A stretch of DNA of 64,000 bases from Squalus acanthias (Eukaryota). A program made the translations under genes and the position numbers. This document shows, in pieces, positions 14,447-57,762 of the stretch. How positions within the stretch are numbered: the first letter of the stretch is position 1; each line of letters opens with the position of its first letter. Location: contig CM059431.1 of assembly GCA_030390025.1 (NCBI GenBank), forward strand, positions 158,908,001 to 158,972,000, given 5' to 3'. Below the pieces are notes generated by a model, which did not search any database, was not told the origin of the DNA, and saw only the letters and a program-made list of their open reading frames with translations.

Positions 14447-14542
14447 CTCTGTTATTTCTCAATTTTCCTGAAATTGTTGGCTCCTTTCCCCTGTTTCGAA
14501 CTTCGGCCATGCCGTTGACAGGCGTTCCCAGGGTCTGATGCT
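14447..14542 (-). CDS. 96-nt phase 1-1 exon, copy A: (E)HQTLGTPVNGMAEVRNRGKEPTISGKLRNNR; resembles N-terminal exon of cartilaginous-fish NLR (NACHT-LRR) genes
   Basis: Acceptor ..tattaaag|, donor AGAG|gtaggt, open frame; same length and frame as paralog 31622-31717. NLR likeness is recalled, not searched; no NACHT/LRR exons in the window. Confidence 0.6.
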
Positions 14543-31621: not shown

Positions 31622-31717
31622 CTGTGTCTTTCCTTATCCTTTTTGAAGATGCAAGATCTTCTCCCCTGTTTGGACCTTCAGCCATGGTCGGGACAGGCGT
31701 TCCAATATTCTGATGCT
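31622..31717 (-). CDS. 96-nt phase 1-1 exon, copy B: (E)HQNIGTPVPTMAEGPNRGEDLASSKRIRKDT; resembles N-terminal exon of cartilaginous-fish NLR genes
   Basis: Acceptor ..tgtttacag|, donor ACAG|gtatgt, good Kozak context (ACCATGG, ATG at 31685-31683), open frame; NLR assignment from recall. Confidence 0.65.
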
Positions 31718-32299
31718 CTGTAAACATTATAATATTAACAGGAGTGTTAGATGGAAGTATTAAAATGAGAAGGAGAACGCTGCCTTGTTAAACATGATAT
31801 CAAGTCCCTCCTCCCCCATCAGTACAACAGCTGTTAGCTCTGGGTGTGAACATTTCCCGAGTGTTATGATCAACATGTCACATCAGGTGTGACAAAGACA
31901 GCTGCCCAATGAAAGCCAGTGAGTTCTGCTCATCTTTCGTGTGCATGTTGGCTGGCGCTGCGGATACGAGCTGTTCACTTCTATTTCCACTCTTTTCTCT
32001 CCTTTAACTTAACTCTCTATCCCTCCCTGATTGCTCTCTGCACTCATTATGTCTCCTTTCATCTCTCCTCTCTCGGATACACTGCTCTTCCAAATCCCTA
32101 CACCAACCCTTCATTACTCTTCGACCTTCCTAATTTCCTGGTGACTTCCCAGCCTTGAAACCCTCTTAGATAAGTCTACAGCTTTCCTCTGTGCCTGTCT
32201 TTGCATTCTCCGAACGGCCTACGGTGGCATTTGTTGCTTCCTCCTCACGAGCAGCAACCCCAAATGTATTATCCTACTCTTTCTCTGACCTTCCCTCCC

Positions 32300-35200
32300 A
32301 GTCCACACGCTGATTGCTAATCTTGCCAATCTCCTTCCCGTCTAACTCACCACTCCCAGCGATAAACCTGTGGACACTGGCAATGCGTTAGCCATCACCG
32401 AACCTCTCCCCATTTCTCTCCAGAATGTCCATTCGCCATCGAACAAGGTCCTTGCCATCCATGAGCTTATCATGGATGATTGCATCGACATCCTGGCCCT
32501 GATGGAAACTTGGCAAGGGGTGATGACACCTTAACCTAAAATGAAGCATCCCCACCTGGCTATACCTTCCAGCACTTGCCAAGCCAAGACAACCATGGCG
32601 GCAGTGTGGCTCTTATCACCAAATCTCACCTTGGTCTGTCTCCCTACTCCTCCACCACTTTATCATCCTTTGAGCATCACACATTATTCCACAACTCTCA
32701 CCACATTTAAAATTCTCGTTCTCTATCCCCCACCCAAGTAACATTATAATTTTATCACCGAGATAGCTTCACTGATCTCGTCCCTCAGCCTCTGCACCGA
32801 GCGACTTCTGATCCTCGGTGATTTCAACCTTCATCTCAAATTGTGATGCTCTCTCTCCTCTGAGTTCACTGCCCTTCAAACTCCCTTAATCTTCCTTCCA
32901 TGTAAACGCCCCAAACCCATATTAAGGGCCACACCCTCGACCTTACCATCTCTCGTGGCCTCACTACACCCATCGTGTCAATCGCAAATAAAGCCTTCTC
33001 TGACCATTTGCTTCTGTCACTCTCCTCCCACCTCCACTTTCTCCCCAAACCCTACTACAATCTGTTTCCTTCCCTGGAAAAAAAAACTCTCTCCCAACTC
33101 TCTTACAACTGCACTTATGAAATCCCAAAAACCAGCCTTTGGCCCTCCATTCACCACAACATTTCTGCAGCTACCGATCTGTTCAACCACACCCTCACCA
33201 CCACCTTCGATGCCGTAGACCCTATTAAATCAATTACACTGTCTCACCCTGGCTGTTCCAACAGGTATGGGTCTGATCTTAGCTCCCTTAATTCCAAGAG
33301 ACGCAGACTTGAACAGATATGGCGGACAACTGATTTAGTCTTTCGTCATCACATCTGGCTGGACCACATAAAGCATTATGGGTTCTTGCTCTCGTCTGCC
33401 AAAAATGCTCACTATTCCAGAATCATTATTGGAATGCAGAGCTAAACCCTGGCTTCTATTCTCCACGGCTAACCTAATTCTTATACCCCTATTCCCTGTC
33501 TCCTCCACTCTCACCTCAAATAACAAGCGCGTGGAGCTCATGAACTTCTTTGTTTTTAAGATTGACACCCTACTATCAGCTGCCTCTGCCACTTCTCTTC
33601 CTTCCCTTAGCCCACCAGGCCAAACTTCCCCTAAGTCTCCCCCTGCCCCACCCCTGAACTGGCATTTTTCTCCAGTTTCTCTCCGATCTCCGCTCCTGAC
33701 ATCGCCGTGCTCATATGAGACCCACGTCCTGCTCCCTCGACCCTATTCCCAGCAAACTGCTGAACACTCAACTTCCTTGTCTGGCTCCTTTCTTAGCTGA
33801 CATTGTTAATGGTTCTCTCTCCTCAGCTACTGTGCCCCTATCCTTCAAACCCGCCATCATCACCACTCTCCTCAAAAAAACAACCCTCGACTCCTCCGTT
33901 CTTGCAATCTATCGCCCCATTTCCTACCTCCCTTTCCGCTCCAAAATCCTTGAACATGTTGTCACCTCCCAAATCCATGCCCATCTTTCCCGGAACTCCA
34001 TGTTTGAATCCCACCAATCAGGTTTCCGCTATTGCCACAGTACCGAAACGGCTCTCATCGAAGTCACAATTGACACCGTTTGCGACTTTGACAAAGACAA
34101 AATATCCCTCCTCGTCCTTCTCAACTTCTCAGCAGCCTTTGACACGGTTGACCACTCCATAGTCCTCCAGCGCCTTTCCAGCGTCGTACAGCTGGGGGGT
34201 GGGGGGTGGGTGGTGCTGCACTCGTCTGGTTCCATTCTTATCTGTTGTAGCCGGAGACACACCTGGAATGACTTCTCTTCCCGCTCCCACATGGTTACGT
34301 CTGTTGTTCCACAAAAATCTATCCTTGGCCCCCTGCGATTCCTCATCTACGTGCTGCCCCTTGACGACATCATCGGAAAACACAGCGTCAGTTCCCACAT
34401 GTACGCTGACGACATCCAGCTCTACCTCACCGCCACTTCTCTTGACCCCTCCACGGTCTCTAAATTGTCAGACTTCTTGTCCGACATCCAGTTGTGAATG
34501 ATCAGAAATGTTCTCCAGTCAAATACTGCTAAGATATTGTTTTCATTCCCGCCACCGACTCCATCCCTCTCCTTAACATCTGCCTGAGGCCGAACCACAC
34601 TCTTGGCAAACATATAGTCATTTTTGACACTGAACTGAGCTTTTGACCACCTATCTGCGGCATAACTAAGACCGCCTATTTCCACCTCTGTAACATCGTC
34701 CGTCTCCGCCTCTGCCTCAGCACATCTGCTGCTGGAACCCTCATTCATGCCTTTGTTACCTCTAGACTTGAAAATTCCAACGCACTCCTGGCTGGCCTCC
34801 CACAATCTACCCTACGTAATCCTGACGTCATCTATATCTCGGATGCACGTGTCCTAACTCACACCAAGACCCGTTCACCCATCACCTCTGTGCTCGCTGA
34901 ACTACATTGGCTCCTGTTTAAGCAACGCCTCGATTTCAAAATTCTCACCCTTGTTTTCAATTCCCTCCATGGCCTCGACCCTCCCTACCTCTAATGTCTT
35001 CCAGCAAAGGCTATGTGCCCCGACAACATCCCGGCTATCTTGCTGAAGACTTGTGCTCCAGAAATAGCCGCGCCTCAAGCCAAGCTGTTCCAGTACAGCT
35101 ACAACACTGGCATCTATCCGACTGGTAAACTGCCCAGGTATGTCCTTTCCACAAAAAGACTAACAAATCCAACCCGATTAGTCTGATCTCAATCATCAGC

Positions 35201-36864
35201 CATGTGATTGAATGTGTCATCTATAGTGCTATCTAGCGGCACCAACTCACAAATAACCTGCTCAATGTTGCCCAGTTTGGGATCTGCCAAGTCCACTCAG
35301 CTCCCGACCTAATCACAGCTTTGTTTCAAACATGGACACAGGAGGTGAGAGTAACTGTTCTTGACATCAAGGCAGCATTTGACTGCGTGTGGCATCAAGG
35401 AGCCCTAGTAAGACTGAAGTCATATGGGAATCGGGGGGGGGGGGGGGGGCGAAACGCTCCATTGTTGGAGACATATCCAGCACAAAGGAAGATGGTTCTG
35501 GTTTTTGAATCTCAATCAACACAGCTCCATGACATCGCTGCAGGAGTTCCTCAGGGCAGTGTCCTAGACCCAACCATCTTCAGCTGCTTCATCAATGACC
35601 TTCCCTCCAACATAAGGTCAGAAAAGGGGATGTTCGCTGATGACTGCAGTGTTCAGCGACATTCACATCTCCTCAGATAATGAAGCTGTCCATGCCCGCA
35701 TGCAACAAGACCTGGACGACGTTCAGGCTTTTGCTGATAATTGTCAGGTAACATTCGCGCCACAGAAGTACCCGGCAATGACTATCTCCAACAAGCGAAA
35801 GTCTAACCACCTCCGCTTGACATTCAACGGCATTACCATCGTCGAATCCCCAACCATCAACACCCTGGGGGGTCACCGTTGTCCTGAAACTTAACTAGAT
35901 CAGCCACATAAAAACTGTGGCAACAAGAGCAGATCAGAGGCTAGGTATTCTTCGGCGAGTGTATCAACTCCTGACTCCCCAACGTCGTTCCATCATCTGC
36001 AAATCACAAGTAAGGAGTGTGATGGAATACTCTCCACTTGCCTTGATGAGTGCAGCTCCAGCAACACTCAAGAACATCGACACAATCCAGGTCAAAGCAG
36101 CCCGCTTGTTGGCACCCCATCCACCACGTTAAACATCCACTCCCTCCGCCACCGGCGTACTGTGGCTGCAGTGTGTACTTTCAAGACGATGCACTGCAGC
36201 AACTCGCCAAGGATACTTTGGCAGCACCTACCAAACCAGCGACCTCTACCACCTAGAAGGACAAGGGAAGCAGGCGCATGGGAACACCACCACCGCCAGG
36301 TTTCCCCTTCAAGTCACACACCATCCTGACTTAGAAGTATATCGCCGATACGTCATCGTCGCTGGGTCAAAATCCTGGAACTCTCTAAATAACAGCACTA
36401 TGGGAGTATTTTCACCACACGGACTGCAGCTTTTCAAGAAGGCAGCTCACCAGCACCTTCTCAAGGGCAATTAGGGATGGGCAATAAATGCTAGCCTTTC
36501 CAGCGACGCCCACATCCCGTAAACGAATAAAAAATCCCCCCGCCCCCGCGAGATAAATGCGCTCCTATATTTCTGCCCTCTTGAGCATCCCTGATAATAA
36601 TCGCTCAAGCATTGGTGGCCGTGCCATCTGTTGCCTAGGCCCTAAGCTCTGGAAATCCTTCCCTAAACCTCTCCGACTCTCTACTTCACTTTCCTTCTTT
36701 AAGTCGCTCCATAAAACCAACCTATTTGACGAAGCTTTTAGTTATCTAACCTATTTTCTCCTTACGTGGCTCGGTATCAAGTTTTTGTCTTATAATATAC
36801 ATGTGAAGCGCATTTGGGACGTTTTACTCCGTTCGAAGGGCTATATAAATACAATTTGTTGTTG
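32300..36864 (+). mobile_element. L2-clade LINE (APE + RT), degenerate, host of a nested LINE
   Basis: APE motifs (ILGDFN near 32810-32830, GHTLDL near 32927-32945); ORF 33715-34497 (YRPISYLP, FSAAFDTVDH, YADDIQL); 3' tail ..TTGTTGTTG at about 36864. Confidence 0.92.
35006..36535 (+). mobile_element. Second-family non-LTR retrotransposon (CR1/Jockey group), 5'-truncated, nested in L2
   Basis: ORFs 35321-35680 ([22 protein letters not shown]), 35640-35894, 35917-36132; 3' end ..GAATAAAAAA; L2 sequence resumes at about 36536. Confidence 0.85.
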
Positions 36865-37326
36865 ATCTCCACAACCGAGTTCCAGATGGGCTCCCGTCGG
36901 CCGGGATTCCGGACTGAGAGTGCCCGTTTGTATGCTTTACTGACAGTGCACGCCAAAACAAGCCTTATTCCTGAGGTAGACAATATTCTGCAGGGAAATA
37001 TGGAGCTTGTGATCGTTGATGAATGAAATGATCCTTCAGTAGGTTTTACACTCTGGCGGTATAATATTATATTTATTCACCGATTTTTGTTTAATATTTT
37101 GGATTTGCTCAGATTTGTTATTAAATTCTGGTAGTTTGTGACTATGATATCTATCCACACACAATATATGTCTGGATGTGATCCCTCTGATCTCTATGGG
37201 CTGTGACATTGTCCGTGTGTTACTGGTGATGTGTCCTGTTTGGTGCTTCTATTTGAATATATTGACCATATCTCTCATGGTGTCAGCACCTGAGGAATCA
37301 GCACTGTAGCAGGTGAGGTCACTTAC

Positions 37327-37404
37327 CACTGTTCCACTAATATTAACACTTATGAATAATATTATGAATCATGTAACTTTAAACAGTGAGATGATGCACA
37401 ACAT
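37327..37404 (-). pseudogene. Leader-like exon copy 2 with in-frame stop: MLCIISLFKVT*FIILFISVNISGTV
   Basis: Colinear with 19-96; GGA>TGA at 37371-37369; consensus donor GTG|gtaagt. Confidence 0.5.
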
Positions 37405-37444
37405 TGATTTCTGGAATATAATTAGGGGTCTGACAATCTAAGAA

Positions 37445-37660
37445 TTGGCCATTAATATACAAGTGGTAGATTTAACTGCTGTTTTACAATCACAATTCTC
37501 CACTTGTGCGCGTGTCTCGCTGTGTGTGTTCACACACGCGCGTCCAATCAAACTTTCAGTCAGCGTACTTTCCTTTCCCCACTGGGGAAATATAGTTTCA
37601 GTCTCGGATCAGTAATTTCTCCAAAATATAGTTGAAGTTATTTTGCGAAATTAATTTAGA
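37445..37660 (-). promoter_or_regulatory. Putative IRF/ISRE promoter upstream of leader exon copy 2
   Basis: AGTTTCAGTCTC at 37594-37605 and ACTTTCCTTTC at 37567-37577 (GAAAGGAAAGT on minus); paralog of 140-350. Confidence 0.42.
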
Positions 37661-38839
37661 ACTAAGTTTGAGACATTGTAAAACTCAGTTATCTGCTGTT
37701 TCATACCTAGTATAATAAAGACATAAGCCACATAAGTCACAACAACAACTTACATTTCCACAGCTTGAGTGGAGCACAAACGCCGGCATGGTCTGGTTGG
37801 GCGGAATCGCCTGTTCTTTGAGGTATCTCCTACGTAACCGCATGTAATTCACATTTCGCTCTCCATACTTTTCCCGCATCGTACCCTACTTCATCCGGGC
37901 ATCTGCCTACTACATTGTTTGTTAATTCTGCCTCCCCATGCTTCACTAACTCCTTATGGTTCACATGTATTTCGTTATTCCCTCTATTCCCCCCGCCCAC
38001 AAAGATACTTCCTCTTGACGTTGCTCACTTAACCGGCATCCTGCTGTGATTTACCTGAAATTAATTTATCAGATAATAAAATAGTTATCTTCCCTTTATT
38101 CGCAGGGATGTTGCGTTGTCAGTTTACGGGGGCGTCCGACTCGAAACCCATCGATTGATGAATGTTACATTCATTTATTTCCCTTAACTCCAAGATCAAG
38201 CGGGTGCTCAAAAGTACAAGACATACCACTGAACAGCGAAAGGAAACGGTGATCGGGTTAACAAGTGAATTGGAAATATTGTGAACTCAATTGCAATCAC
38301 ACTAATTTTTGTGGATATCATTACACCGAGTAATAAGGAAATAATTATGGGAAATCAGTTTGCGATATGAATAGAAAATAATCACGCAGTCATCAATAAT
38401 TTAGCCAATGCATAACTGTAGCTGGTATAATTAAAGAACTGATAGTACATCACTATAAAACTCAGAGGGATTTGCGGGAGTCGGGTCGGAGAAAGGCGTG
38501 AGAGGTATCTCTATTAATAAAGACAAAACCTCATCATCAACAACTTGCATTTGTACGACGTCTTTAAAGTGGAAAATAAAGGAGTTTTACTGAAGCAAGA
38601 ACGCACACATCCGGGACAACGAAAATGATAATAAGGGTTCAAGAAGATGTAGATGAATTGCAGTCAAAAAAGTAGGTTTTTGAGCATAAGTTTAATGATT
38701 GCCAGGGGACGTAGAGGTGGATAGTTTAGGGAGAGAATAACAAAGTGAGTAGTATATTTCTTTTACTCCACCAAAAATGCAACTGGTTATTTCACTATTT
38801 GTATTTCCTGCATCATTACTGTCGGCGGTGCAATCTTAC

Positions 38840-38968
38840 CGCGATTTTTCTGGTTTGGCCAACAACACGTCACCAGAACTCCTACTGCTCCCAGCAGTAT
38901 TGCAACTGAGACTGCAACCGTGACGATTATCTTGCCTTGTTCGTCCATTATTGCAGTATCGTCAATCT
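38840..38968 (-). CDS. Intact transmembrane exon of a type-I membrane (probably Ig-superfamily) protein: (E)IDDTAIMDEQGKIIVTVAVSVAILLGAVGVLVTCCWPNQKNR
   Basis: 129 nt, phase 1-1, acceptor ..tcatttacag|, donor CGCG|gtaaga, about 23 consecutive apolar residues, juxtamembrane Cys-Cys and basic residues. Confidence 0.72.
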
Positions 38969-39070
38969 CTGTAAATGATAGAATATGTTTGAGATTTATT
39001 TTTCAAATATTCATTGACAGTCCAAATAGTCTCAAACAATTCGGAAAGCTGCTGTTATTTCATAACACTC

Positions 39071-41078
39071 AGAGAAAAAAAGACTCTAAGAGAAAGATGA
39101 ACCATCCGTGAATATGTAAGAAAGTAAAGGATGGTGTCAACTTGAGAATAAAAGCATATAATGTTGCGAAGAATAGTGGAAGGGCAAGGATTGGAAATGT
39201 TTAAAAACCAGCAAAGGATGACTAAAAAATGATAAAGAGAGAGAAGATAGCTTATGAGAGTAAGCTAGCAAGAAATATAAAAACAGACAGTAAGAACTTC
39301 TACAGGTATATAAAAAGGAAGAGTGTACCTAAAGTAACGTTAGTCCCCCAGAGGAAGAGTCTGGGGAATTAATAATGGGAAACAGATGAATGGCAGAAAT
39401 ATTGAACAAATATTTTGTATCGGTCTTCACGGTACAAGACACTAAAAGCTTTCCAATAATGGTTAATCAAGGGGCAATTGGGTTAGGGGGGACTTCAAAC
39501 AATCAATGTCACTAGAAATTACTAGGCAAATTAATGGAACTAAATTTGGACAGCCCCCCTGGTCCCGATAGCCCGCATGCTAGAGTCTTAAAAGAGGTGG
39601 CTGCAGACATAGTGGATGCATTGGTTGTAATCTACCAACATTCCCTTGGTTCTGGAGAGGTCACAGCGGACTGGAAAACCGCAAATGTAACGCCCCTATT
39701 TAAGAAGGAAGGAGCCAGAAAGCAGGCAACTATCGACCAGTTACTTAATATCTGTCATTGTGAAAATGCTGGAGTCCATCATTAAGGAAGTGGTAGCAGG
39801 AAATTTAGAAAATCGTAATATAGTCAAGCAGAGTCAGTATGGTTTTATGAAAGGGAAATTATTTTTGACAAATTTGCTGGAGTTCTTTGAGGATATAATG
39901 AGCAGGGTGGATAAAGGGGAACCAGCAGATGTGTATTTGGATTTTCATAAGGCATTCGATAAGGTACCACATAAAAGGTTCCTACACAAGATAAGAGCTC
40001 ACGGGGTTGGAGGTAATAAATTAGCATGGATAGATGATTGGCTAAAAAACAGAAAAAAGAGAGTCGGGATAAATGGGTCATTTTCAGGTTGGCAAACTGT
40101 AACTAGTGGGGTGCCGCAGGGATCAGTGCTTGGGCCTGAACTATTTACAATCTATATTAATAACTTGGATGATGGGTCTGAGTGTAATGCAACCAAATTT
40201 GCTGATGATACAATGATAGGTGGGAAAGCAAGTTGTGTGGAGGAGGCAAAGAATTTCCAAAGGGGTATAGATAGGCTAAGTGAGTGGGCAGGAATCTGGC
40301 AGATGGAGTATAATGTGGGAAAATGCGAGGTTATCCACTTTGGTAGGACATTTAAAAAAAAAAAAATATTTAAATGGGGAGAGATTACAAAATGCTGAGG
40401 TACAGAGGTATCTGGGGGTCCTTGTACATGAATCACAAAATGTTATCATGCAGGTACAGCAAGTAATTACGATGGAAAATGGAATGTTGGACTTTATGCA
40501 AAGGGAATGGAGTATAAAAGTAGGGAAGTCCTTTTACAACTGTAGAGGGCGTTGGTGAGACCACACCTGGAGTACTGTGTACAGTCTTGGTCTCCTTATT
40601 TAAGGAAGGATATACTTGCATTGGAAGCAGTTCAGAGAGGGTTCACGAGGCTGATTCCGGAGAGGAAGTGGTTGTCTTATGAAAAACAGGTTCAGCAGGT
40701 TGGGCCTATGCTCATTGGAGTTTAGAATAATGAGAGCGGACTCATTGAAACATATAACAATTCTGAAGGGGGAATCTAGAACTAGGGGCATAATTTCAGA
40801 CTAAGGGGGCACCCTTTTAAAACGGAAATGAGGAGGAATTTCTTCTTCCAGAGAGTCGTGAATCTTTGGAATTCTCTGCCGCAGAGAGCTGTTAATGACA
40901 ATATTTAAGGTGGAGACAGACAGATTTTTGAAAGGTAAGGGAGTCAATGGTTATGGGGAGCGGGCAGGGAAGTGATGCCAAGATGAGATTAGCCATGATC
41001 TTATTGAATATCGGTGCAGGCTCGAGGGGCCAAATGAGCTACTCCTGCTCCGACGTCTTATGTACTTATGTTATGTTC
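39071..41078 (+). mobile_element. CR1 LINE ORF2 3' part
   Basis: ORFs 39534-39785 and 39760-40398 ([29 protein letters not shown]); (CTTATG)-type tail near 41057-41078. Confidence 0.93.
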
Positions 41079-41084
41079 TTCCGT

Positions 41085-41323
41085 TTATCGTTTGTCTACC
41101 TCATTATTCAGTTTACATTTTGATCTCCTCTGCTGTTTTCACCGTTTTTCTTTGTCAGGTGACCTTAACTTTGTGGATTTCTGCACTTTGCCTGAATAAC
41201 GTGCATATAAAGTATGCACAAGAGATTTATCAGAGAAGAATGTGTGCCACGGTTGGGCTGACTGTGCATTGGGTGATCTTCTGTTAGTTCACCAAATGAC
41301 CGCGACACATAACACTGGACAAC
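41085..41323 (-). pseudogene. Decayed Ig V-set exon fragment (B7/nectin/CD200-like), cut off by the CR1 element
   Basis: Acceptor ..atattacag| at 41326-41324; one frame reads KITQCTVSPTVAHILL**ISCAYFICTLFRQSAEIHKVKVT*QRK with B-strand Cys (41205-41203) and TGA at the C-strand Trp position 16 codons later. Confidence 0.45.
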
Positions 41324-41451
41324 CTGTAATATATTCAAGTCTATACATGTTCAGACATCGCCATTTAGTCCTGCTTCTGGGCTTTGATTCGTTACGATTT
41401 TCCTATTCTAATGTTAATCTGAACAAATTGGCTGCTGTATTTGCTTACTTG

Positions 41452-41469
41452 TGCCACCAGGCGGCGCTG
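41452..41469 (+). promoter_or_regulatory. CTCF-like site
   Basis: TGCCACCAGGCGGCGCTG versus core consensus CCACCAGGGGGCGC (1 mismatch), in non-repeat DNA. Confidence 0.5.
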
Positions 41470-42460
41470 CTTAGCACCAGAAGCTGCTTTTTCCCAATTG
41501 ACGGGCCAAATTTATCAGTGGGCATGACGGGGTACACTGAGAGTACACTGTCATACCGCCTTTGAAAATGACCACAAGTTCGCGTTTTCCGCATGCGCTT
41601 CAATAGGCGCTAAATACCGAACTTGTGATGCCTTAACAGATGATTTGCAACAACGCGGAAATACTCATCCTGGAATAGTGTTGGGCTAATTGCCACTAAC
41701 TGCCCGGCAATTACGTATGAAGATTTTACTGTTGGTGTAAGCAGTTGCAGGAGCCTGTTTCACTGTGAAAGGGATCCAGTTGTGTTGAATATTGAGAACA
41801 ATCAGCGGATATAGTTGCAAGCAATAAAACTTTAACCCTAAAACGTGCACAATATTCAAATTGTTCCGTGAGTTTAAATAAAATTGAAGTGATACTGTTA
41901 CCAAAATACCACCCACAGAAACAAACAACATGTACCGAACACATACCACTTGAAATAACCTAAGAATTAAAGGTTTTTTTTTCCGCAGAGAAGTAGGCTG
42001 AATGTGGTCGCTCCACCGATTTCACAGAGCCTCTGAAATGATTAGTAATCGTTCTGGTATAACTTTACAATAAAATACATGTCTCTAGTGGCAACATTTA
42101 GAAATATTAATAATAAAAAAAATATGACAGTTAATATTTAAAATGATCAATGTTTTCTGCACTCCAAATGTATGATCAAGAACTGGGCATCTGACAAAGA
42201 TCATTTATACTTCCTCCAAATGTATGAAATAAAACCATTTTCCTATTTAATTATTTTATATAATACATTTAAAGCTGCCCCACAGCTGGTGTGCTAGGTG
42301 CATGGTGTATAGTAAATCAAAAGGTGCATTGCCAACGCCTTTTTGTGCTGCTGAATCCCAATCCATCGGAAAGTTACTGCGACATTTTAATATTTTTTTC
42401 ACTAATAGACATTTGACAGGATATTAAATGCTAGCCTTAGAAGAATAAAAAAAAAATTAC

Positions 42461-42571
42461 CTGATTTACATAAACTATTTACACATCCGGAATTTGAAAG
42501 CCGGGATGGTGAAGTAAAGCACCAGCTATTCTTTGGGCTGGCAAAACACTCTGCAACGCTCTTCAATGTTC
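42461..42571 (-). CDS. Candidate 111-nt phase 1-1 exon: (G)TLKSVAECFASPKNSWCFTSPSRLSNSGCVNSLCKS
   Basis: Pyrimidine tract with GAG acceptor (weak), donor TCAG|gtaatt, only the phase-1 frame is open. Confidence 0.35.
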
Positions 42572-42974
42572 CTCAGAGCAAATAAGAAAAGGAACAAGAT
42601 TCTTAGTATAAAATACAAATAACTTAAAGTTTAATAAAAATCCCAAGTGATAGACACTGTTATAAACTCAATAGAAGTTTGAACAGATAAACTATCTATT
42701 TCAATTTAGTAAATATTTAAATTATTATTACCCCCTGACGGTCAAAGGACGAAAATGTTTCGATTGACCTCAAATTATAATTTGTTTCATTCAAGTGGAA
42801 ATCAGATGCCAAAATATTATTGGTATTTTGTTACATAATCGTACCAAAATGCTGATATATTAAATATGTCCAAGTACCAGTTTAATTAAAAGTATTAAAT
42901 TATAATTTCAATGGAAGGATCTGCAGGAAGTTTCTGTGGGTGTGGCTTAGATGTGACAAATTATGTGGGCGTGT

Positions 42975-44915: not shown

Positions 44916-45930
44916 TGGAGGGGAACGGGTGAGAGCAGAAGTGCGAGAAATAGAACGGACACAGTCAAGAGCTGTGTCAACTACAGTAGAGGGGAATCCT
45001 CGGTTGAGGAAAAAGGAAGACATGTCGGAAACATTTCTTTAGAAGGTGGCATCGTTAGAGCGGATGCGGTGGAGATGGAAAAACTGGGAGAATAGAATAG
45101 AGTACTTACAGGAAGCGGGGTGGGAGTCAGTGGGCTTATAGTGAATGTTTGTCGAAAGCTTATCCCCATAGATGAATACAGCGAAGTCGAGGAAGGGAAG
45201 GGCGGAGTCGGAGATGGAGCATGTGAAGGTGAGGTAAGGGTGGAAATTGGTAGCAAAGTGAGTGAAATGTTCTAGTTCAGGGCGAGAGCAGGAAACAGCT
45301 CCAATACAGTCATCAATGTACCAGAAAAAGAGGTGAGGGAAGAGACCTGTGTAGGACTGGAACAACGAATGTTCCACATACCCCACGAAAAGGCAGGAAT
45401 AGCTAGGACCCATGCGGGTTCCTATCGCATCAACTTTAATTTGGAGGAAGTGAGTGGAGTCAAAGGAGAAGTTTTTCAATTTGAGAACACGTTCAGCCAG
45501 GCGAAGGAGGGTGTTGGTGGAAGGGGACTGGTTCGGCTTTTGTTCAAGGAAGAAGCAGAGCGCCCTCAGGCCATCCTTGTGGGGGATGGAGGTGTAGAGG
45601 GATTGGACGTCCATAATGAAATGGAGACGGTTGGGGCCACGAAACTGGAAACAGCTAAAGTGGTGGAGGGCGTCGGAAGAGTTGCGGATATAAGTGGGAA
45701 GAGACTGGACAAGGGGAGAAAAAATAGAGTAGAGATAGGAAGAGATAAGTTCCGTGGGACAAAAACAGGCTGTAACGATGGGTTGTGGATATTAGGAAGG
45801 AGGTAGAAACGTGCTGTGTGGGGTTGGGGAACTATGATGTTGGCGGCCATGGAGGGAAGATCTGCAGAGGAGATGTGGTCAGTGACAGTCTTGGAAACGG
45901 TGGCTTGATGTTTGGTAGTGGGGTCATGGA
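44916..45930 (-). mobile_element. Penelope-like element RT core fragment
   Basis: ORF 45039-45614 (MDVQSLYTSIPH, GTRMGPSY, YIDD, LPFLD); FYLLPNIH in ORF 45566-45850. Confidence 0.92.
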
Positions 45931-46179
45931 TGGGTATCCTGGCACCAATCGTTGAAGGTGGCAGAACAGTATGAGAAAGCAGTTAAAATGCTTACCGGAT
46001 CCTGGGCTTCATGAATTGAGGTATCGAGAACAAAAGCATGGAATTTATGATGAACCAGAATAAAACACTGGTTCGGCCTCAACTGCGGTATTGTGTCCAG
46101 TTCTGGGCACCGTACTTTAGGAAGGATGTGATGGCCTTAGAGAGGGTGCAGAAAAGATTTACGAGAATGATTCCAGGGA

Positions 46180-49100: not shown

Positions 49101-50698
49101 GAGGAGGTATTGGCGGTTTTACCAGGTGTAAAAATGGATAAATCCCCAGGTCCGGACGAAATGTATCCCAGGCTGCTGTGTGAGGCAAAGGAGGAGATTG
49201 CGGGGGCTCTAACACATATATTAAGAACCTCTCTGGCCACAGTGGATGTGCCAGAGGACTGGAGAACCGCTAATGTAATACCATTATGCAAGAAAGGGAG
49301 TAGGGAAAAACCGGAGAACTTCAGGCCAGTGAGCCTAACATCAGTGATAGGAAAATTATTGGAAAAAATTCTGAGTGACAAAATCAGTCTCCACTTGGAG
49401 AGGCAAGGATTAATCAGGGTTAGCCAACATGGTTTTGTCAAGGGAAGATCATGTTTGACTAATTTGATTAAATTTTTTGAGGGAGTAACTAGGTGTGTGG
49501 ATGAGGGTAACGCAGTGGATGTGGTATACATGGATTTCAGTAAGGCCTTCGATAAAGTCCCGCACAGGAGACTGGTCAAGAAGGTAAGAGCCCATGGAAT
49601 CCAGGGTGCCTTGGCACATTGGATACAAAATTGGCTCTGTGGCAGAAGGCAGAGGGTGATGGTCGAAAGTTGTTTTTGTGACTGGAATCCTGTGGCCAGT
49701 GGGATACCACAGGAATCGGTGCTGGGTCCCTTGCTGTTTGTGGTCTACATTAACGACTTGGATATGAATGTAAAAGGTATGATCAGTAAGTTCGCGGATG
49801 ATGCAAAAATTGGTAGGGTGGTAAATAGCGAGGAGGGTAGCCTCAGTCTGCAGGACGATATAGATGGGTTGGTCAGATGGGCGGAACAGTGGCAAATGGA
49901 ATTTAATCCGGAAAAGTGCGAGGTGATGCACTTTGGAGGGATTAACAAGGCAAGGGAATACACAATGAATGGTAAGACCCAAGGCAAGACGAAGGGTCAG
50001 AGGGATCTTTGTGTGCAAGTACACAGATCACAGAACAGGTGGAGAAGGTGGTAAAAAAGGCATATGGGATACTTGCATTAATTAGCCGAGGCATAGAATA
50101 TAAGAGCAAGGAGGTTATGATGGAGCTGTATAAAACACAGGTTAGGCCACATCTGGAATACTGTGTGCAGTTCTGGACGCCACACTACAGGAAGGATGTG
50201 ATAGCTTTGGAGAGTGTGCAGAGGAGATTCACCAGAATGTTACCTGGACTGAAGTGCTTCAGCCATGAAGAGAGACTGGGCAGATTGGGTTTGTTTTCCT
50301 TGGAGCAGAGGAGGCTAGGGGGGGAAATGATTGAGGTGTACAAAATTATGAGGGGCATAGGTACGATGGATACTAAGGAGCTTTTTCCCTTAGTAGATGG
50401 CTCTATAACAAGGGGGCATAGATTCAAGGTAAAGGGCGGGAGGTTTAGAAGGGATTTGAGAGAGAACTTTTTCACCCAGAGGGTGGTTGGAGTCCGGAAC
50501 TCACTGCCCGAAAGGGTTGTGGAGGCAGGAACCCTCACAACATTCAAGAAGCATTTGGACGAGCACTTGAAATGCCATAGCATACAAGGCTACGGACCAA
50601 ATGCTGGAATATGGGATTAGATTAGACAGGGCTCGATGGCCGGCGCCGACACGATGGGCCGAAGGGCCTCTATCCGGGCTGTATAACTCTATGACTCT
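46180..50698 (+). mobile_element. Full-length HER1/CR1 LINE with a few frameshifts/stops (ORF1 zinc-finger/zipper + esterase; ORF2 APE-RT)
   Basis: ORF1 46755-about 47712 (CSSCSMWE..KC); ORF2 pieces 47884-48108, 48334-48936 (GDSDHN), 48969-50054 (FADD), 50009-50620; tail CTCTATGACTCTATG. Confidence 0.97.
46182..46526 (+). repeat. Five tandem 69-bp monomers in the LINE 5' UTR, each with a TATA box and splice-donor motif
   Basis: Units start at 46182, 46251, 46320, 46389, 46458; each has CCTATAAAA and AG|GTAAGG. Confidence 0.95.
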
Positions 50699-51186
50699 AT
50701 GAGGGACTTCAATTACGTGGTTAGACTGGAGAAGCTGGGTTTGTTCTCCTTAGAGCAGAGAAGGCTGAGAGGAGATTGTATTGAGGTGTTCAAAATCATG
50801 AGGAATCTGGACAGAGAAGATAGAGAGAAACTGTTCCCATTGGCGGAAGGGTCGAGAACCAGAGGACACAGAATTAAGGTGATTGGCAAAAGAAGCAAAG
50901 GCGACGTAAGAAAAAAACTTTTTTAAGCAGCGAGTGGTTAGGATCTGGAATGCACTGCCTGAACAGGTGGTGGAGGCACATTCAATCACGGCTTTCAAAA
51001 GGGAGTTGGATAAGTATCTGAAGGAAATAAATTTGCAGGGCTATGGAGAACGGGCGGGGGTGTGGGACAAGCTGAAGTGCTCTTGCAGAGAGCCGGCATG
51101 GGCTTGACGAGCCGAATGGCCTTCTTCCATGCTGTAACCATTCTATGATAGAAAACAACTCTTAAAGAATGACAGAAGGCAAACGT

Positions 51187-51258
51187 TTCCCCGTGGTCTC
51201 ATGGTTAGGATTCGGCTCTTTCACAGCCTAAATTCGAGTTCGAAACACAGTCAGGAAA
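51187..51258 (+). pseudogene. Degenerate tRNA-Glu(TTC) pseudogene
   Basis: GTGGTCTCATGGTTAGGATTCGGCTCTTTCACAGCC matches tRNA-Glu D and anticodon arms (anticodon TTC 51220-51222); GTTCGAA T-loop; acceptor and T stems mismatched; T-rich tract follows. Confidence 0.75.
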
Positions 51259-51282
51259 TTATTTTTATTTATTTTATGATTT

Positions 51283-52436
51283 ATGAGGGCACTGTGGTTG
51301 ATGTGGAAGAGCTCACGGGGTTGGGGGTAATGTATTAGAATGGATAGAGGATTGGCTATCTAACAGAAAACAGAGCCGGGATAAATGGTTCATTTTCAGG
51401 TTTGCAAACTGTAACTAGTGGAGTGCCGCAGGGATCAGTTCTGTGGCCTATTTACAATCTATATTAATGTCTTGGATGAAGGGACCGAGTGTAATAAGCC
51501 AAATTTGCTGATGATACAAAGAAAGGTGGGAATGTAAATTGTGTGGAGGACGCAAAGAATCACCAAAGGGATATAGATAGGCTAAGTGAGTGGACACAAA
51601 ACTGGCAGATTGAGCATAAGTGGGAACATGCGAGGTTATCCACTTTGGTAGGAAAAAAAAAATATTATTTAAATGGGGAGAGATTACAAAATGCTGAGGT
51701 ACAGAGGAATCTGGGGGTCCTTGTACATGAATCATAAAAAGTTAGCGTGCATGTACAGCAAGTAATTAGGAAGGCAAATGGAATGTTGGCCTTTATTGCA
51801 AAGGATATGGTATACAAAAGTAGGGAAGACCTGTTACAACTTTACAGGGCGTTGGTGAAACCACACCTGGAGTCGTGCATAGTTTTCGTCTCCTTATATG
51901 GGGAAGGATATACTTGCACTGGAGGCAGTTCAGAGAAGGTTCACGAGGTTGATTCCGGAGATGAAGGGGTTGTCTTATGAAGAAAGTTTGAGTGGGTTGG
52001 GCCTAAACTCATTGGAGTTTAGAAGAATGAGAGCGGATCTTACTGAAACATATATGATTCTGAAGGGGCTTGACAGGGTAGATGCAGAGAGGATGTTTCC
52101 CCTCGTGGGAGAATCTAAAACTAGGGGGCATAAATTCAGAAAATGGGGGCACCCATTTAAAACAGAAATGAGGAGGAATTTCTTCTCTCAGAGGGACGTG
52201 AATCTTTGGAATTCTCTCCCCCAGAGAGCTTTGGAGGCTGGGTCATTGAATATATTTAAGGTGGAGATAGACAGATTTTTGAATGGTAAGGTATCAAGGG
52301 TTATGGGGAGCGGGCAGGGAATTGGAGTTGAGGCCAAGATCAGATCAGCCATGATCTCATTAAATGGCGGAGCAGGCTCGAAGGGCCGGATGGCCTACTC
52401 CTGCTCCTATCTTCTATGTATCTATGTATCTATGTA
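51283..52436 (+). mobile_element. CR1 LINE 3' part
   Basis: ORFs 51543-51737, 51747-51980, 51898-52437; (CTATGTAT)n tail. Confidence 0.9.
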
Positions 52437-52679
52437 ATAAAATTTGAACTGGATCGGAGAATAATTGGGATAGGTCTTCGATGGGATAGAAAGCCAATAG
52501 AAAAGTGAACTGCTGACATCAGCAATGGCTGGAAGATATGTTATAACTGTAGATGAATTAGGAGAATTCCCAATTAACAGATTGCTATTTTAGAGTATAA
52601 TAAAGATATGGGGTGAAATTCGACTTCTGTGGGACACAAAATAAGTGCACCGAGAAAAGAAAATCGGGAGATGTGTATA

Positions 52680-55330
52680 ACATAGGAGTACGAGTAAGCC
52701 ATTCCTCTACTCGGGCCTGCTCCGCCATTCAGTTAGAGCATTGCTGATCTGTATAACAAGTATATTTCGCCCTCCTTGGTTCCAGTTCCATATCCTTTAA
52801 TAACCTTACCTAACAAACATCTTACAATTTATGTTTTGAAAATTTCAATTCACCTAACATTAGCATCTTTTTGGGGAGAGTATTCCAGTCTTTCCACAAC
52901 ACTTTGTGTGAAGAAGCATTTCCTGGCATCATGCTGAACGACCTAGCTCTAATTTTAAGGTTCTGCCCCCCTGTTCTGGACTCCTCCACCAGAGGAAATA
53001 GTTTATGTCGAGCTTATCTTTCAAATCATTTAATCATCTTAAACACATCAATTGGATCACCACTTAATCTACTAAACACAAGAGAATACAAAGCTAGTAC
53101 ATGCAATCTGTCCTCATGTTGCAATTTTTTAGCCCCGGTATCAATCTGATGAATCAGCATTGCATCCCCTGCAAGGCCATTGTATCCTATTGAGGTGCGG
53201 TTCCCAACACTGAAAACAATAACATACGGTCTAACCAGAGCTCTGTAGAACTATATCATAACTTCGAACCCTATGTATTCCAGACCCCTTGAGTTATAGA
53301 AACAGAGAAGATAGGAGCAGGAGTAGGCCATTCGGCCCCTCGAGCTTGCTCCGCAATTAGATGAGATCATGGCTGATCATCCAAACTCAGTACCCTGTAC
53401 CTGCCTTCTCCCCATATTCCTTGATAACTTTAGTTTTAAGAAATATATCTAACGCATTCTTGAAAATATTTAATGATTTGGCCTCAACTACCTTCTGTGG
53501 TAGAGAATTACAGAGGTTCAACACTCTCTGGGTGAAGAAATCCTTCCTCATTTCTGTCCTAATTGGCTTACCCGTGATCCTTAGATTATGACCCCTGGTT
53601 CTAGACTCTCCGAACATCGGGAACATTCTTCCCGCATCAAGTTTGTCCAGACATGATAGAATTGTATATGTTTCGATGAGATCCCATCTCATTCTTTTAT
53701 ACTCCAGCGAGTATAAGCCCAATCGACCCAATCTCTCCTCATATATCACCCCTGCCATCCCAGGTATCAGCCTTGTGAATCTTCGCTGAACTCCTTCCAT
53801 GGCAAGAACATCCTTCCTCAGATAAGGCGACCAAAACTGCACACAATATGAAGGTGTGGTCTCACCAAGGCCCTGTACAACTGCAGCAGGACATCTCTGT
53901 CCCTATACTCAAACCCTTTCGCAATGAAGGCCTTCGTCACCGCCTGCTGCACCTGCATGCTTTCCTTCAGCGACCGGAGCACAAGGACAGCCAGGTCTCG
54001 CTATACTTCCCCTTCTCCCAATCTATTGCCATTCAGATGATTGTCTGCCTTTCTGTTTTTGACACCAAAGTGGATAACCTCGCATTTATGCTCGTTATAT
54101 TGCATCGGCCACGCTTCTGCCCACTCACCCAACCTGTCCAAATCATCCTGGAGTTTCTCGGTATCCTCCTCGCAGCACACACTCCCACCCAGCTTTGTGT
54201 CATCTGCAAACTTGGAGATATTACACTTAGTTTCCTTATCTAGATCATTAATGTATATTGTGAATAGCTGGGGTCCAAGGACCAATCCCTGCGGTACCCC
54301 ACAAGTCACTGCTTTCCACTCGGAAAAAGACCGATTAATTCCTACTCTCTGCTTTCTGTCCGCCAAACAGTTCTCTATCCAAGTCAATACCTTGCCCCCA
54401 ATCCCATGTGCCTTAACCTTACACGCTAATCTCTTATGCGGGACCTTATCAAAAGCCTTTTGAAAGTCCAAATACACCACATCTACTGGTTCTCCCTTAT
54501 CTATTTTCCCAGTTACATCCTCAAAACATTCCGGTAGATTATTCAAGCACGATTTACCTTTTGTAAATCCATGTTGACTTTGTCCAATCCTGTCACTGTT
54601 TTTCAAGTGCTCAGATATTACATCCTTTATAATGGACTCTAGCATTTTCCCCACTACCGATGTCAGGCTTACCGGTCTGCAATTCCCCGCTTTCTCTCTA
54701 CCACTCTTTTTGAATAGTGGGGTAACATTAGCTACCCTCCAATCCATGGGTACAGTTCCAGATTACATCGAATGTTGGAAGATGATCAGCAATGCATCTA
54801 TTATTTATAGGGCCACTTCCTTAAGTACCCTAGGATGTAGATTATCAGGCCCTGGGGATTTATCGGCCTTCAATCCCGTCAATTTCCCTAACGCCATTTC
54901 CCTGCAAATACTGATTTCTTTCAGTTCCTCCCTTTCATCAGACCGTATGTTCTCCAACATCTCTGGGAGGTTATTTGTGTCCTCCTTTTTGAAGACAGAA
55001 CCAAAATATGCATTTAATTGGTCTGTCATTTCTTTGTTCCCCATTATAACTTACCCCGCTTCTGACTTCAAGGGACCCACACTTGATTTCACTAATCTTT
55101 TTCTCTTCACATATCTATATAAGCTCTTACAGTCAGTGTTTATGTTCCCAGCCAGCTTACTTTCATATTCTATTTTCCTCTTCTTAATTAATCCCTTTGT
55201 CCTACTTTGCTGAATCCTAAACTGCTCCCAATCCTCAGGGTTACCACTTTTTCTGAGCAATTTATATGCCCTCTATTTGAATCTTATGCTATCCCTAGTT
55301 TCCCTTGTTAGCCACGGTTGCGTCACCCTG
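52680..55330 (-). mobile_element. Two CR1 LINE pieces (old 3' fragment about 52680-53297; younger ORF2 about 53298-55330)
   Basis: ORFs 54001-54747 (YLDFQKAFDKVPH, KFADDTK), 53387-53842, 54805-55044, 55051-55260. Confidence 0.9.
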
Positions 55331-55529
55331 ATAAAGGGGAACATTCCATGTGCCTGTTAATTATCTTTTTATATCTGGCCACTAGCTTTTAGTGATGTCT
55401 GTATTTGGGCCCGAAACCTATCTGTTCGTCCACAGTTCCTAGATTCACGCAATATCGGAAATAATCTGATCTATAATTCTTGGGACCAAAGTGTATGGCA
55501 TCACTTTCCCACATCTGCCACAGTGTTAC

Positions 55530-56115
55530 CCATGGAGCACAGAACCAGGGAAGTTATGATAAACATTTAGCCATTGCCGGTTAGGCCTCAGGTGGAGTAT
55601 TATTTCCAATTCTCGGCACCATACTTTGGGACTGCTGTTAAGGCCTTGAGGAGTGTGCAGAGATCAGTTGCTGTAATGGTACTAGAGATTCGGGGCTTAG
55701 GTTACATGGGGAGACTGGAGAAGCTGCGATTGTTCTCCTTAGAGCAGAGAATATTACGGGTAGATTTAATAGAGGCGTTCAAAATAATCACTTTTTTGAA
55801 AAAATAATTGAGGAGAATCTATTTACACTGGCAGCAAGGTCGGCAATCAAAGGACATACATTTAATGTAATTGGCAAAAGAGCCAGAAGTGAAATGAGGA
55901 GTTTCTTTCATTATGATCTGGAATGCACTGCCTGAAATTGTGATGGAAGCAGGTTCAGTAGTACATTTCAAAAGTGAATTGGATAAATACTCAAAGGGAA
56001 GAACATCGCAGGACTATATCGAGAGTGCAGATGAGTGGGACTAAATGGATTGTTCTTTCAAAGAGCCGACACAGGCTCGATGAGCCGAATGGCCTCATTC
56101 TGCATGATTCTAGGA
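55530..56115 (+). mobile_element. Old CR1 3' fragment
   Basis: ORF 55574-55807 (VRPQVEYYFQF..RLEKLRLFSLEQR) and GCCGAATGGCCT 3' motif. Confidence 0.8.
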
Positions 56116-57097
56116 TATCGAATTCTAACGCTTTGATTCTAAACCTGTTATAAACGACAAATATACTTGAATACTATTTTACAGCAGCAGGCATTTAGCG
56201 TGTGAGATTGCATTTGCAAGTTTTATTCTGTTAATTGACTCAACTGTCAATAAATGAATTTTTGGTCAAAAAAAATTGATACCTGATCCACTATTGTTAG
56301 GTTAACAGTACGAATGATTTTCCGGTAAGAATAGCAGTGAGACTATCAGAACTCATCATTATTATGGAGTAAATCGGACACCAACCTACAGAGTCCGCAC
56401 ACGTGGAAAAAGGGAAGTAGCTGTACGGTTTTGCCTACTCCACCACAAGCTTCGCTACACCGGTAAACCGCTGATAGATTCAATATGAATGGTACTTGCA
56501 CACTTGATAAACAATAAACACGCCAGAAAATTTAAGGCATGCTCACTTAAGTGTAAGTGAATCTTTCACGGAGTAGTAAACAACATCACTGGCATTGACA
56601 ATTTACTTTCACAAGTGTGGAGTCGCATTCCTTCACATTTTAATTATTGTTGGAGATTTAAAAAAAAACTCTCAATTTCTCTTTCTGTTTCTTTTATCTC
56701 TCTCTTAATTGGAACTTATGTTCTCTCTCTTTCTCTTAATTTCGGTTTCTGCACATGATTTTAAATTCAATTAAATGTTCTAATTTTCACTTCCTGTTTA
56801 AACTCTGGGTGTCTCAGTAAGGATTTATCAACACGCTGTTCCTCGCCCTGTCCACAGAGGTCCCAGGTCCCCTGGAGAGGACGCCACGGTGAAATGGATT
56901 TCTAATTACCGCAGGCAGCAGAGGAAAAGCCAGCTGAAATTTTGTGGGCCGCTGTAAGCAAAATGAACAGTGAGCGCCGATCATTCGCCGCTGAGCGCAA
57001 AATCCGGGCCAATTTTATTTGCACTACTTCACAAATAAACGGCAATTTCGCTGAATTAAAACACCAAAATGGTGCTCAGAATATTTCACGTCCTTAC

Positions 57098-57157
57098 CTT
57101 CTGCTGCGGTTCCTTTGTGTAGTTCCAGATATTCTGGGTTAATTAGCGTTGTGGGTT
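57098..57157 (-). CDS. Candidate 60-nt phase 1-1 stalk exon: (E)PTTLINPEYLELHKGTAAE
   Basis: Acceptor ..ttaaccgccag|, consensus donor GAAG|gtaagg, open frame, about 300 bp downstream of the C2-set exon. Confidence 0.4.
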
Positions 57158-57456
57158 CTGGCGGTTAATGAACACACCCTGGTTAAAGGTCAGTTACACA
57201 ACAAAGTCATGAACACAACCTTCAGTCAAGATCAGCCTGATCATTAAAATCCCTCCTCGGCATGATTCCTGGTGCAGGTCTCGATCTGAATCACAAATGG
57301 TCTGATGCAAATTGAAATAATTCAACTTTTACGCAAAGTTATTAATCCTCTGTGTGGTAACAATGAATACATATTATCTTAGCTCTTCCATCTGCTGTTC
57401 AGAAGACCCCACAGTGAAAAAGGGATCTGTAGCCGGGATCTAATTTAATTACTCAC

Positions 57457-57762
57457 CATAAAAATAGGTATTAAAGGACTATGAAAGGGAAGAGATAGGG
57501 TGGGACAAAGATCGATGATTATAATCTCCGGCAAATAGTCTCTAGTTAATGAGTAACAGTTTGGGCCTTTATCAGGTTGGTCGAACCCATGGTTATCAGG
57601 CTCCAGGTTTCACGTACTGGAACTACTGAGCAATTGTGTTGGTTAAACTCCGCTTCATCGGCCTGTTAACTTGTAGTGCTGGTGAAGTAATATCCCATTT
57701 TAATTTAATCTTTCTTTTAACTGTTTGCCAACGGATTTAATTTATTGTGAGAGTGAGAAACT
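57457..57762 (-). pseudogene. Decayed Ig C2-set (CD80-like) domain exon
   Basis: 306 nt, phase 1-1, acceptor ..atgttcag|, donor TATG|gtgagt. Across two compensating frameshifts reads EFLTLTIN*IRWQTVKRKIKLKWDITSPALQVNR / DEAEFNQHNCSVVPVRETWSLITMGSTNLIKAQTVTH*LETIC / NHRSLSHPIS; inferred Cys>Trp and Trp>Arg at the core positions. Confidence 0.55.

Follow-up and report, generated by a model that had tools for sequence, protein, structure and literature searches.

In the stretch of Squalus acanthias DNA analyzed here (the window; 64,000 nt of contig CM059431.1), the unit on the minus strand is probably a duplicated chimeric 5′ fragment from a shark NLR cluster, in which a block carrying a transmembrane (TM) exon stands ahead of the start of a cytosolic MAEG-type NLR, and no Ig-TM-NLR product is likely to come from it. 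The order of the parts, their homologies and phases, a breakpoint near position 38265, and the absence of Ig and NACHT were seen directly in the window; the TM block was likely joined by recombination to the front of an ordinary cytosolic NLR, ahead of its leader and MAEG exons. The features are listed below by window position.

56900..57820, minus strand: multi-copy NLR-family 5′ element, the earlier note's 57.5-kb Ig exon; exon end at 57098 with GT donor; not Ig
41090..41502, minus strand: intron that immediately precedes the TM exon of TM-NLR genes, the earlier note's C2 exon; every frame stopped; not Ig
39072..41072, no strand assigned: interspersed repeat in the intron 5′ of the TM exon; several copies in the window, missing in paralogs, where its flanks adjoin
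38840..38968, minus strand: TM exon of 129 nt with intact AG/GT, phase 1-1, open, encoding a hydrophobic helix and a Cys pair
38265..38839, minus strand: TM-NLR intron remnant that normally leads to a CARD-like exon; homology ends near 38265, the chimera breakpoint
37327..37727, minus strand: leader/promoter unit of a MAEG-type NLR; acceptor 37410, donor 37327; stops in the frame of the TM and 96-nt exons
31622..31717, minus strand: 96-nt exon whose MAEG start codon is at 31685; AG/GT, phase 1-1, open; resembles shark NACHT-LRR N-termini
14447..14542, minus strand: second, diverged 96-nt exon; AG/GT, phase 1-1, open; tandem duplicate that includes the upstream intron
19..450, minus strand: second leader unit, 83% identical to 37311-37764

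The TM exon proved to be the intact phase-1 exon described in the earlier note, with a peak hydropathy of 2.8 over 19 residues and a Met at 38948 that is conserved across its family. Judged by homology, it was displaced from a family of predicted membrane-anchored NLRs found in sharks and rays. In TM-NLR genes both the signal-like exon and the TM exon are homologous to it, and the block is collinear with genes carrying that clade's NACHT, flanking introns included, up to about 38265; the intron remnant matches C2044:265374-266201 and C7:155776276-155775454 with 67% identity over about 840 nt and ends at 38267. The exon has 12 close and several distant copies, and its profile weakly matches the TM segments of Heterodontus, Stegostoma and Scyliorhinus models; searching proteins with the alignment of the exon, a weak method, gave no match. 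An intact model of the parent clade (C2044:261784-289054) comprises 8 exons and 935 aa with no internal stop, and Walker A and Walker B motifs are present in its translation as well as in that of the C6 gene described below. In such parent genes a signal-like exon and the TM exon are followed by CARD-like, NACHT and LRR exons, and the predicted product would be a single-pass, membrane-tethered NLR whose outer part is a short stalk and whose cytosolic part carries a tyrosine motif, a CARD-like domain, NACHT and LRR.

In a quick tree of 48 hand-picked NACHT rows, which took in 44 of 204 proteins, one clade (SH-aLRT 100) united the C2044 model with 22 database proteins, 17 of which bear a TM segment; two other clades held the MAEG-type NLRs and the NACHT that follows the window. 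The database proteins in support are all automated gene models. Those of Scyliorhinus torazame (XP_072354258.1), Heterodontus francisci (XP_067916153.1) and Mustelus asterias (XP_078087540.1) belong to the clade; they have a signal-like segment, a TM segment or both, in many cases a CARD-like domain, and then NACHT and few LRRs. Their database names leave the membrane segment unmentioned; a DY[AV]QL motif after the helix is common to C2044 and S. torazame. With these models the window shares the TM block only, lacking the CARD-like and clade NACHT exons after it. The earlier note had supposed that intact relatives of the TM exon may encode a membrane-anchored NLR with a B7-like ectodomain; they do sit in predicted membrane-anchored NLR genes, but no Ig or B7-like ectodomain was found on them.

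Past the breakpoint, the sequence belongs to a different gene type. The leader unit shares 68% identity with the 5′ region of an intact gene of the MAEG type on C3498, its donor lies within the promoter/leader unit that had been placed at 37.3-37.7 kb, and it stands downstream of TM in 12 of the 12 close TM copies, which suggests that the junction likely arose once. The second leader unit heads nine two-exon modules just outside the window (C7:158902412-158835163), in which all nine CARD1 exons are open; we call these modules CARD-like because their Pfam CARD score falls below the cut-off (16.7 bits in P0009 against 23.9, with 5 of 44 proteins matching at E <=0.05). Both 96-nt exons, representatives of 404 candidates genome-wide, are open and phase 1-1 as previously described, and the attribution of the MAEG-type start to the N-terminus of cartilaginous-fish NACHT-LRR proteins was confirmed by NACHT in 14 of 16 matches from a check run with the exon. 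Leader and MAEG-bearing 96-nt exon together make up the 5′ end of a MAEG-type cytosolic shark NLR. The unit alone does not constitute an NLR gene, with no NACHT or LRR before the next gene start, and a search of the window agreed with the earlier note that it contains no NACHT exon.

The two segments that had been taken for Ig-like exons gave a different picture. The 57.5-kb element, with 258 candidates genome-wide, many of them 5′ of NACHT exons, has stops in all three frames and retains its GT donor in 18 of 20 aligned copies despite 10- and 12-nt indels upstream; it is likely a promoter plus non-coding first exon. The 41.2-kb segment runs, in divergent paralogs, directly into the acceptor of the TM exon. 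When profiles made from this genome's own Ig hits (25 C2-set_2 and 25 V-set) were run on 120 frames of both segments and their copies, no score exceeded 2.1 bits; in a control with Ig exons that had been held out and then decayed artificially, C2 exons reached 13 bits or more in 11 of 12 cases and V exons 47 bits or more in all 12. C1-set domains were covered only indirectly, apart from these profiles. No stop-free run of Ig length was present on the sense strand in 20 copies, the longest spanning 35-76 codons for the 57.5-kb segment (10/10 copies) and 48-82 codons for the 41.2-kb segment (10/10). The claimed Ig-like exons are thus not upheld, and the IgV and IgC exons that a B7/butyrophilin-like gene would have 5′ of its TM exon are absent from the window. 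The idea that NLR genes were inserted into a B7-like cluster fared no better, since 1.46 Mb of cluster DNA yielded no Ig hit better than E 7.8.

Splicing of the TM exon to either 96-nt exon (31717-31622 or 14542-14447) introduces no stop, as had been pointed out, yet such frame compatibility is weak evidence because all modules of the cluster are phase 1 and the adjoining intron is equally open. The 11 codons before MAE were indeed open in 35 of 35 unique copies; as a sign of an internal coding exon, however, this openness is at chance level, given that the 20 intron codons just 5′ were open in the same frame in 35 of 35, and the remaining two frames in 30 and 31 of 35, and the argument was rejected on these controls. 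We also dropped dN/dS as a coding test for this exon, as values of 0.98 before and 1.31 after the ATG cannot separate coding from non-coding sequence when the accepted coding part also exceeds 1. Among the 16 MAEG matches, 9 include the pre-ATG codons, with extensions of several unrelated kinds, none hydrophobic, and one database model (P0058) uses the 96-nt exon internally in tandem with no need of a TM. The proposed TM-to-96-nt splice finds no support: CARD-like exons follow TM in the intact relatives, and TM and the MAEG motif occur together in 0 of 204 NACHT proteins. Transcripts from the 57-kb element would instead run through the TM exon into the leader exon, where a stop after 10 codons would limit any membrane peptide to at most 46 residues, and transcripts initiated at the leader would presumably be translated from MAEG. 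No RNA data set was listed as containing the TM exon. Reads from three same-label runs of uncertain kind on 31300-42800 were swamped by repeats, and neither of the two junctions sought was among the 15 joints listed, with 218 more unlisted; this has no bearing either way.

Some properties of the TM exon count against our best explanation. Its splice sites are intact, 11 of the 12 close copies are stop-free, and 5 synonymous variants were observed against 11.4 expected (permutation P 0.014, a single test made without a tree), a deficit that neutral decay does not predict. The intact splice sites and the deficit would fit a TM exon that is still live, with the 57-kb exon spliced to TM, past the leader, to a 96-nt or CARD-like exon and on to NACHT, giving an Ig-less membrane NLR assembled from three module lineages. 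The donor at 57097 and the TM splice sites are intact, the Met context is good, every module is phase 1, RefSeq isoforms of two other sharks begin at this exon's Met (P0210, P0214-P0216), and the same strand carries, further downstream, an intact body of CARD-like and NACHT exons that a long splice could reach. The distance downstream to open NACHT exons is 238 kb from the window's TM and 58 kb from its sibling at C7:159181644. We nevertheless consider this reading unlikely. Between the window's TM and the nearest same-strand NACHT (C7:158708659) there are five leader exons, a second TM exon and nine exons of the 96-nt type; no database protein combines TM with MAEG; and one of the 12 close copies carries a stop and two an Arg inside or at the end of the helix. 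Divergence in the TM exon (0.079) equals that in its flanking introns (0.076 and 0.077), in keeping with our best explanation.

Sibling TM exons might alternatively encode C-terminal anchors after CARD-like modules in tandem; the stop would come from the leader exon, and the window copy would be a passenger. A TM exon does directly follow CARD-like exons at C7:158833016, 155026339, 155300023 and 159181644, and the nine open CARD1 exons adjoin the window; but the helix would have to be oriented opposite to that of the parent genes, and the window copy would be left without function, as no CARD-like hit lies 5′ of TM either within the window or in a further 80 kb, so we hold this to be improbable. 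Least credible by far is the proposal that the decayed Ig, TM and 96-nt exons formed a single B7-like Ig-TM-NLR gene or mark NLRs inserted in a B7-like cluster. The compatible frames speak for it, as do Ig-TM-NACHT models in Narcine and Polypterus, the former with its orthologue on C6; against it, Ig signal is absent from the segments, their copies and the cluster DNA, both segments are better identified as non-coding, and the C6 protein, searched by tblastn at E up to 1, has no match to the window, while its NACHT forms a separate long branch of the tree. A chimeric, duplicated 5′ fragment remains our preferred account of the window.

The search for an Ig, TM and NACHT combination did succeed elsewhere in this genome, at C6, in a gene with no exon in common with the window. 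This unbroken gene is predicted to encode a receptor with a B7-like ectodomain, TM and NLR, and is conserved in an electric ray. Its exons are ordered IgV (B7-like), IgC1, TM, cytosolic IgC, NACHT and LRR; seven of them join in frame over 1044 codons with 0 stops (this set covers neither the exon for the signal peptide nor the final LRR exons), and domain scores were all above cut-off (V-set 35.6, C1-set 49.4, post-TM C1-set 28.4 and NACHT 109.3 bits). Its Narcine bancroftii orthologue, XP_069757801.1 (P0198, named 'NLR family CARD domain-containing protein 3-like isoform X4'), is 72% identical over 1044 aligned residues and has the identical order of V-set, C1-set, TM, C1-like, NACHT and LRR; this entry is an automated model, the sole member of its database cluster. 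It has no relation to the exons of the window, and its NACHT is only about 29-36% identical to those of the NLR cluster around the window. An Atlas search with this protein returned two NACHT plus V-set clusters (0.93, 0.92) in which Echinodermata was the commonest phylum, a lead only. The best PDB sequence match of the C6 IgV exon was CD276 (E 7e-14), and the next include VTCN1, B7-H6 and PD-L1, with CEACAM chains matching too. Nothing in the window is like the B7 family (CD276/B7-H3, VTCN1/B7-H4, NCR3LG1/B7-H6, PD-L1), and B7 proteins are not known to carry a NACHT-LRR tail.

Vertebrate NLRs are regarded as cytosolic sensors. The paper on the expanded NLRP-related family of the whale shark, NACHT-LRR proteins proposed to substitute for NLRP inflammasome activators, takes NLRs as intracellular, and both of its mentions of 'transmembrane' concern other things (Tan et al. 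2021, PMC8455134); the MAEG-type genes described here likely belong to that family. Membrane-embedded NLRs turned up in the literature searched only in cnidarians, a sea cucumber and, weakly, sponges, and a search whose coverage leaves out most subscription journals gave no report of cartilaginous-fish NLRs with TM or Ig segments. These reports describe sea cucumber AjNLRC4 and AjNLR-new, which combine NACHT, TM segments and Ig domains and were observed at the cell membrane, with the NACHT of AjNLR-new reported as extracellular (PMC13133943), and anthozoan TM-NLRs, NACHT proteins with three to four TM segments (Yuen et al., PMC3879445). By architecture, the C6 gene can be likened to these invertebrate proteins, from which it differs in its B7-like V+C1 ectodomain and single helix.

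We lean towards the view that sharks and rays possess two independent classes of membrane-embedded NLR. One would be the expanded, fast-evolving clade of TM-CARD-like-NACHT-LRR genes, whose phase-1 TM exon has been shuffled onto other NLR starts, as in the window; the other would be a conserved single-copy receptor with B7-like V+C1 domains, one helix, a cytosolic disulfide-less IgC, NACHT and LRR. The window itself illustrates the shuffling of phase-1 modules (TM, MAEG, CARD-like, NACHT) within the cluster, and is an example of why a splice cannot be inferred from frame compatibility alone. If the two-class view is correct, a cell-surface ligand could directly trigger an NLR through the second class of receptor, and the C6 gene, intact in shark and ray, would join surface recognition of the costimulatory or checkpoint type to NLR signaling within one chain in a jawed vertebrate.

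The window (C7:158908001-158972000) lies in a large NLR cluster of the 3.7-Gb genome; genome-wide, there are at least 404 candidates for the 96-nt exon and at least 481 for NACHT, and the best protein matches for window-derived queries were from sharks and rays. The TM exon and the two 96-nt exons, which carry the MAEG start, were present where the earlier note had placed them, and the TM exon gave a stop-free splice to either 96-nt exon:

38968-38840, minus strand: TM exon, AG/GT ends, phase 1-1, open frame
31717-31622 and 14542-14447, minus strand: 96-nt exons, AG/GT ends, phase 1-1, open frames

Phase 1 is used throughout the cluster modules (TM, 96-nt, the CARD-like pair and the NACHT start), and any pair is therefore frame-compatible. 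A strand-skewed 27-bp satellite of 12 kb (19012-31082) starts approximately 540 nt past the first 96-nt exon. A 45-bp tandem repeat (13228-13484) lies within a minus-strand, stop-free, Ala-rich frame about 125 codons long, 1 kb past the second 96-nt exon, with far longer open versions at C7:158753545 and 158794857.

The interpretation of segments at 57.5 kb and 41.2 kb as Ig exons failed, with no Ig profile signal and a longest stop-free run of at most 82 codons in every copy. Profiles built from the same genome's own V-set and C2-set_2 matches scored at most 2.1 bits over 120 frames of the two segments and their copies, and found no match better than E 7.8 on 1.46 Mb of cluster DNA. As a positive control, a quarter of the residues in held-out Ig exons were randomised, and these exons still reached 13 bits or more in 11/12 (C2) and 47 bits or more in 12/12 (V); half-length C2 controls score lower (at most 3 bits in 3/12). 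For the 57.5-kb segment there are 258 candidates, and many of them are 5′ of NACHT genes; four copies precede one intact gene on contig C3498 of the MAEG type (ordinary cytosolic shark NLRs starting at the 96-nt exon). It runs into a GT donor at 57097 that is conserved in 18 of the 20 copies aligned, frame-breaking indels are present among these, and we infer that it reads as the promoter and non-coding first exon of an NLR family. The 41.2-kb segment (15 matches) abuts the TM acceptor directly in divergent paralogs and is therefore intron; in the window, a 2-kb repeat separates it from the TM exon.

Open codons before the ATG had been taken as a sign that the 96-nt exon is an internal coding exon, an argument that did not survive comparison with its surroundings. 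Among 58 matches, 49 had an AG-96-GT exon, representing 35 unique copies; the pre-ATG codons were open in all 35, but so were 20 upstream intron codons in the same frame, with other frames open in 30 and 31 of the 35. As dN/dS was 0.98 upstream of the ATG and 1.31 downstream of it, that test had no power. Database matches to the exon contained NACHT in 14/16 cases and an Ig family in 0/16; nine included the pre-ATG codons, while in seven the MAE methionine was the start. None of the nine extensions, which were of several unrelated kinds, was hydrophobic: over the first 300 residues, hydropathy peaked at 1.26. Leader-derived transcripts would begin translation at MAEG, since the leader exon (within the unit at 37327-37727) has stops in the frame entering the 96-nt exon.

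The TM exon itself has 12 close copies, along with several more distant copies. In most of the distant copies, a signal-like exon and the TM exon come ahead of CARD-like modules of two exons each, and a divergent NACHT lies about 20 kb on; at three such loci, neither a leader nor a 96-nt exon lies between TM and NACHT. One locus, C2044:261784-289054, yields an intact TM-NLR model of eight exons and 935 residues with no internal stops; the NACHT exons are broken in its two paralogs on C7 (156.63 and 155.75 Mb). Searches with the C2044 NACHT returned 57 and later 150 proteins. Among 204 stored NACHT proteins, 20 had a hydrophobic segment (at least 1.9) N-terminal to NACHT and none combined it with the MAEG motif, so the proposed TM-to-96-nt splice is probably wrong. 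A quick tree was built from 44 hand-picked proteins plus four genomic exons. In it, C2044 and 22 shark and ray database proteins formed one clade (SH-aLRT 100), 17 of the 22 having a TM segment (including P0044, at 1.89); proteins of the MAEG type, like the NACHT that lies downstream of the window, grouped outside this clade. Elsewhere on C7, a signal-like TM1 exon heads seven or more CARD-like modules and a second TM exon is absent (158022319-158077563), and a fragmented TM-clade NACHT, 65-67% identical to C2044 (159063985-159072924, plus strand), faces an intact NACHT of another clade.

The window is a chimeric NLR-cluster fragment. From 41502 to about 38265 it tracks the TM-NLR gene, introns included, and this homology ends approximately 850 nt before the expected position of the CARD-like exon; past the breakpoint come a repeat and then the leader of a MAEG-type gene. 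The same leader lies behind the TM exon in 12/12 close copies, which suggests that the join was likely a single event, later duplicated. A transcript joining the 57-kb exon to TM, and TM to the acceptor of the leader (37410), would meet a stop 10 codons into the leader. Four sibling TM copies have CARD-like exons upstream in place of the original intron. Downstream of the window are nine two-exon CARD-like modules (C7:158902412-158835163, adjoining its 3′ side), ending in another TM exon, and three more leaders; on translation, all nine CARD1 and all nine CARD2 exons were free of in-frame stops. The window's TM exon is 238 kb from an open gene body with CARD-like, NACHT and LRR parts. A less likely reading is that the exon is live and is spliced to a downstream NACHT. 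In favour of that alternative, the 12 close copies show 5 synonymous and 40 non-synonymous variants where 11.4 synonymous were expected (P 0.014), a deficit weaker in other frames and possibly reflecting diversifying selection; against it, the exon diverges as fast as its own introns.

An Ig-TM-NLR architecture is predicted elsewhere in this genome, in a gene unrelated to the window's exons. Ig, TM and NACHT occurred in one chain in 2 of the 204 proteins, Narcine XP_069757801.1 and Polypterus XP_039601942.1. The Narcine NACHT had one strong genome match (C6:33805803-33807557, 78%; next best 33-36%, in a search with a stricter first look), and the N-terminal part of the Narcine protein matched three same-strand exons 7-17 kb upstream (71, 67 and 52%), outlining an apparently single-copy gene:

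C6:33825000-33801700, minus strand: IgV, IgC1, TM, post-TM IgC, NACHT and LRR exons, in frame

Seven of its exons, two of them LRR, have canonical splice sites and give 1044 codons with no stops and 72% identity to the Narcine protein end to end. NACHT and all three Ig exons pass Pfam cut-offs, and the best PDB match of the IgV is CD276, with other B7 proteins just behind. Given a single helix after V and C1, the cytosolic side is predicted to hold NACHT, LRR and the third Ig; both species have Phe at the second Ig cysteine position of the post-TM IgC, and the missing cysteine would suit such a location. Two neighbouring genes fused by annotation are a possible but less likely explanation, because order, phase and identity are conserved in shark and ray. 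The C6 protein had no match in the window, and DNA matches between the two loci all fall outside the C6 exons. The Polypterus senegalus model (P0136), with butyrophilin-like V and C domains, has a NACHT on a different branch from C6 and forms a one-member cluster; the model may be a product of annotation fusion.

Among the papers listed by our literature searches, none dealt with TM- or Ig-bearing NLRs of cartilaginous fish. Tan et al. 2021 (PMC8455134) report that an NLRP-related family has expanded in sharks, and they regard NLRs as intracellular; TM-NLRs are reported in anthozoans (PMC3879445), and Ig-TM-NACHT proteins of a sea cucumber are reported to be located at the membrane (PMC13133943). 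The earlier expectation of membrane-anchored NLRs among relatives of the TM exon is borne out at the level of prediction, by the C2044 model and its TM-bearing clade.
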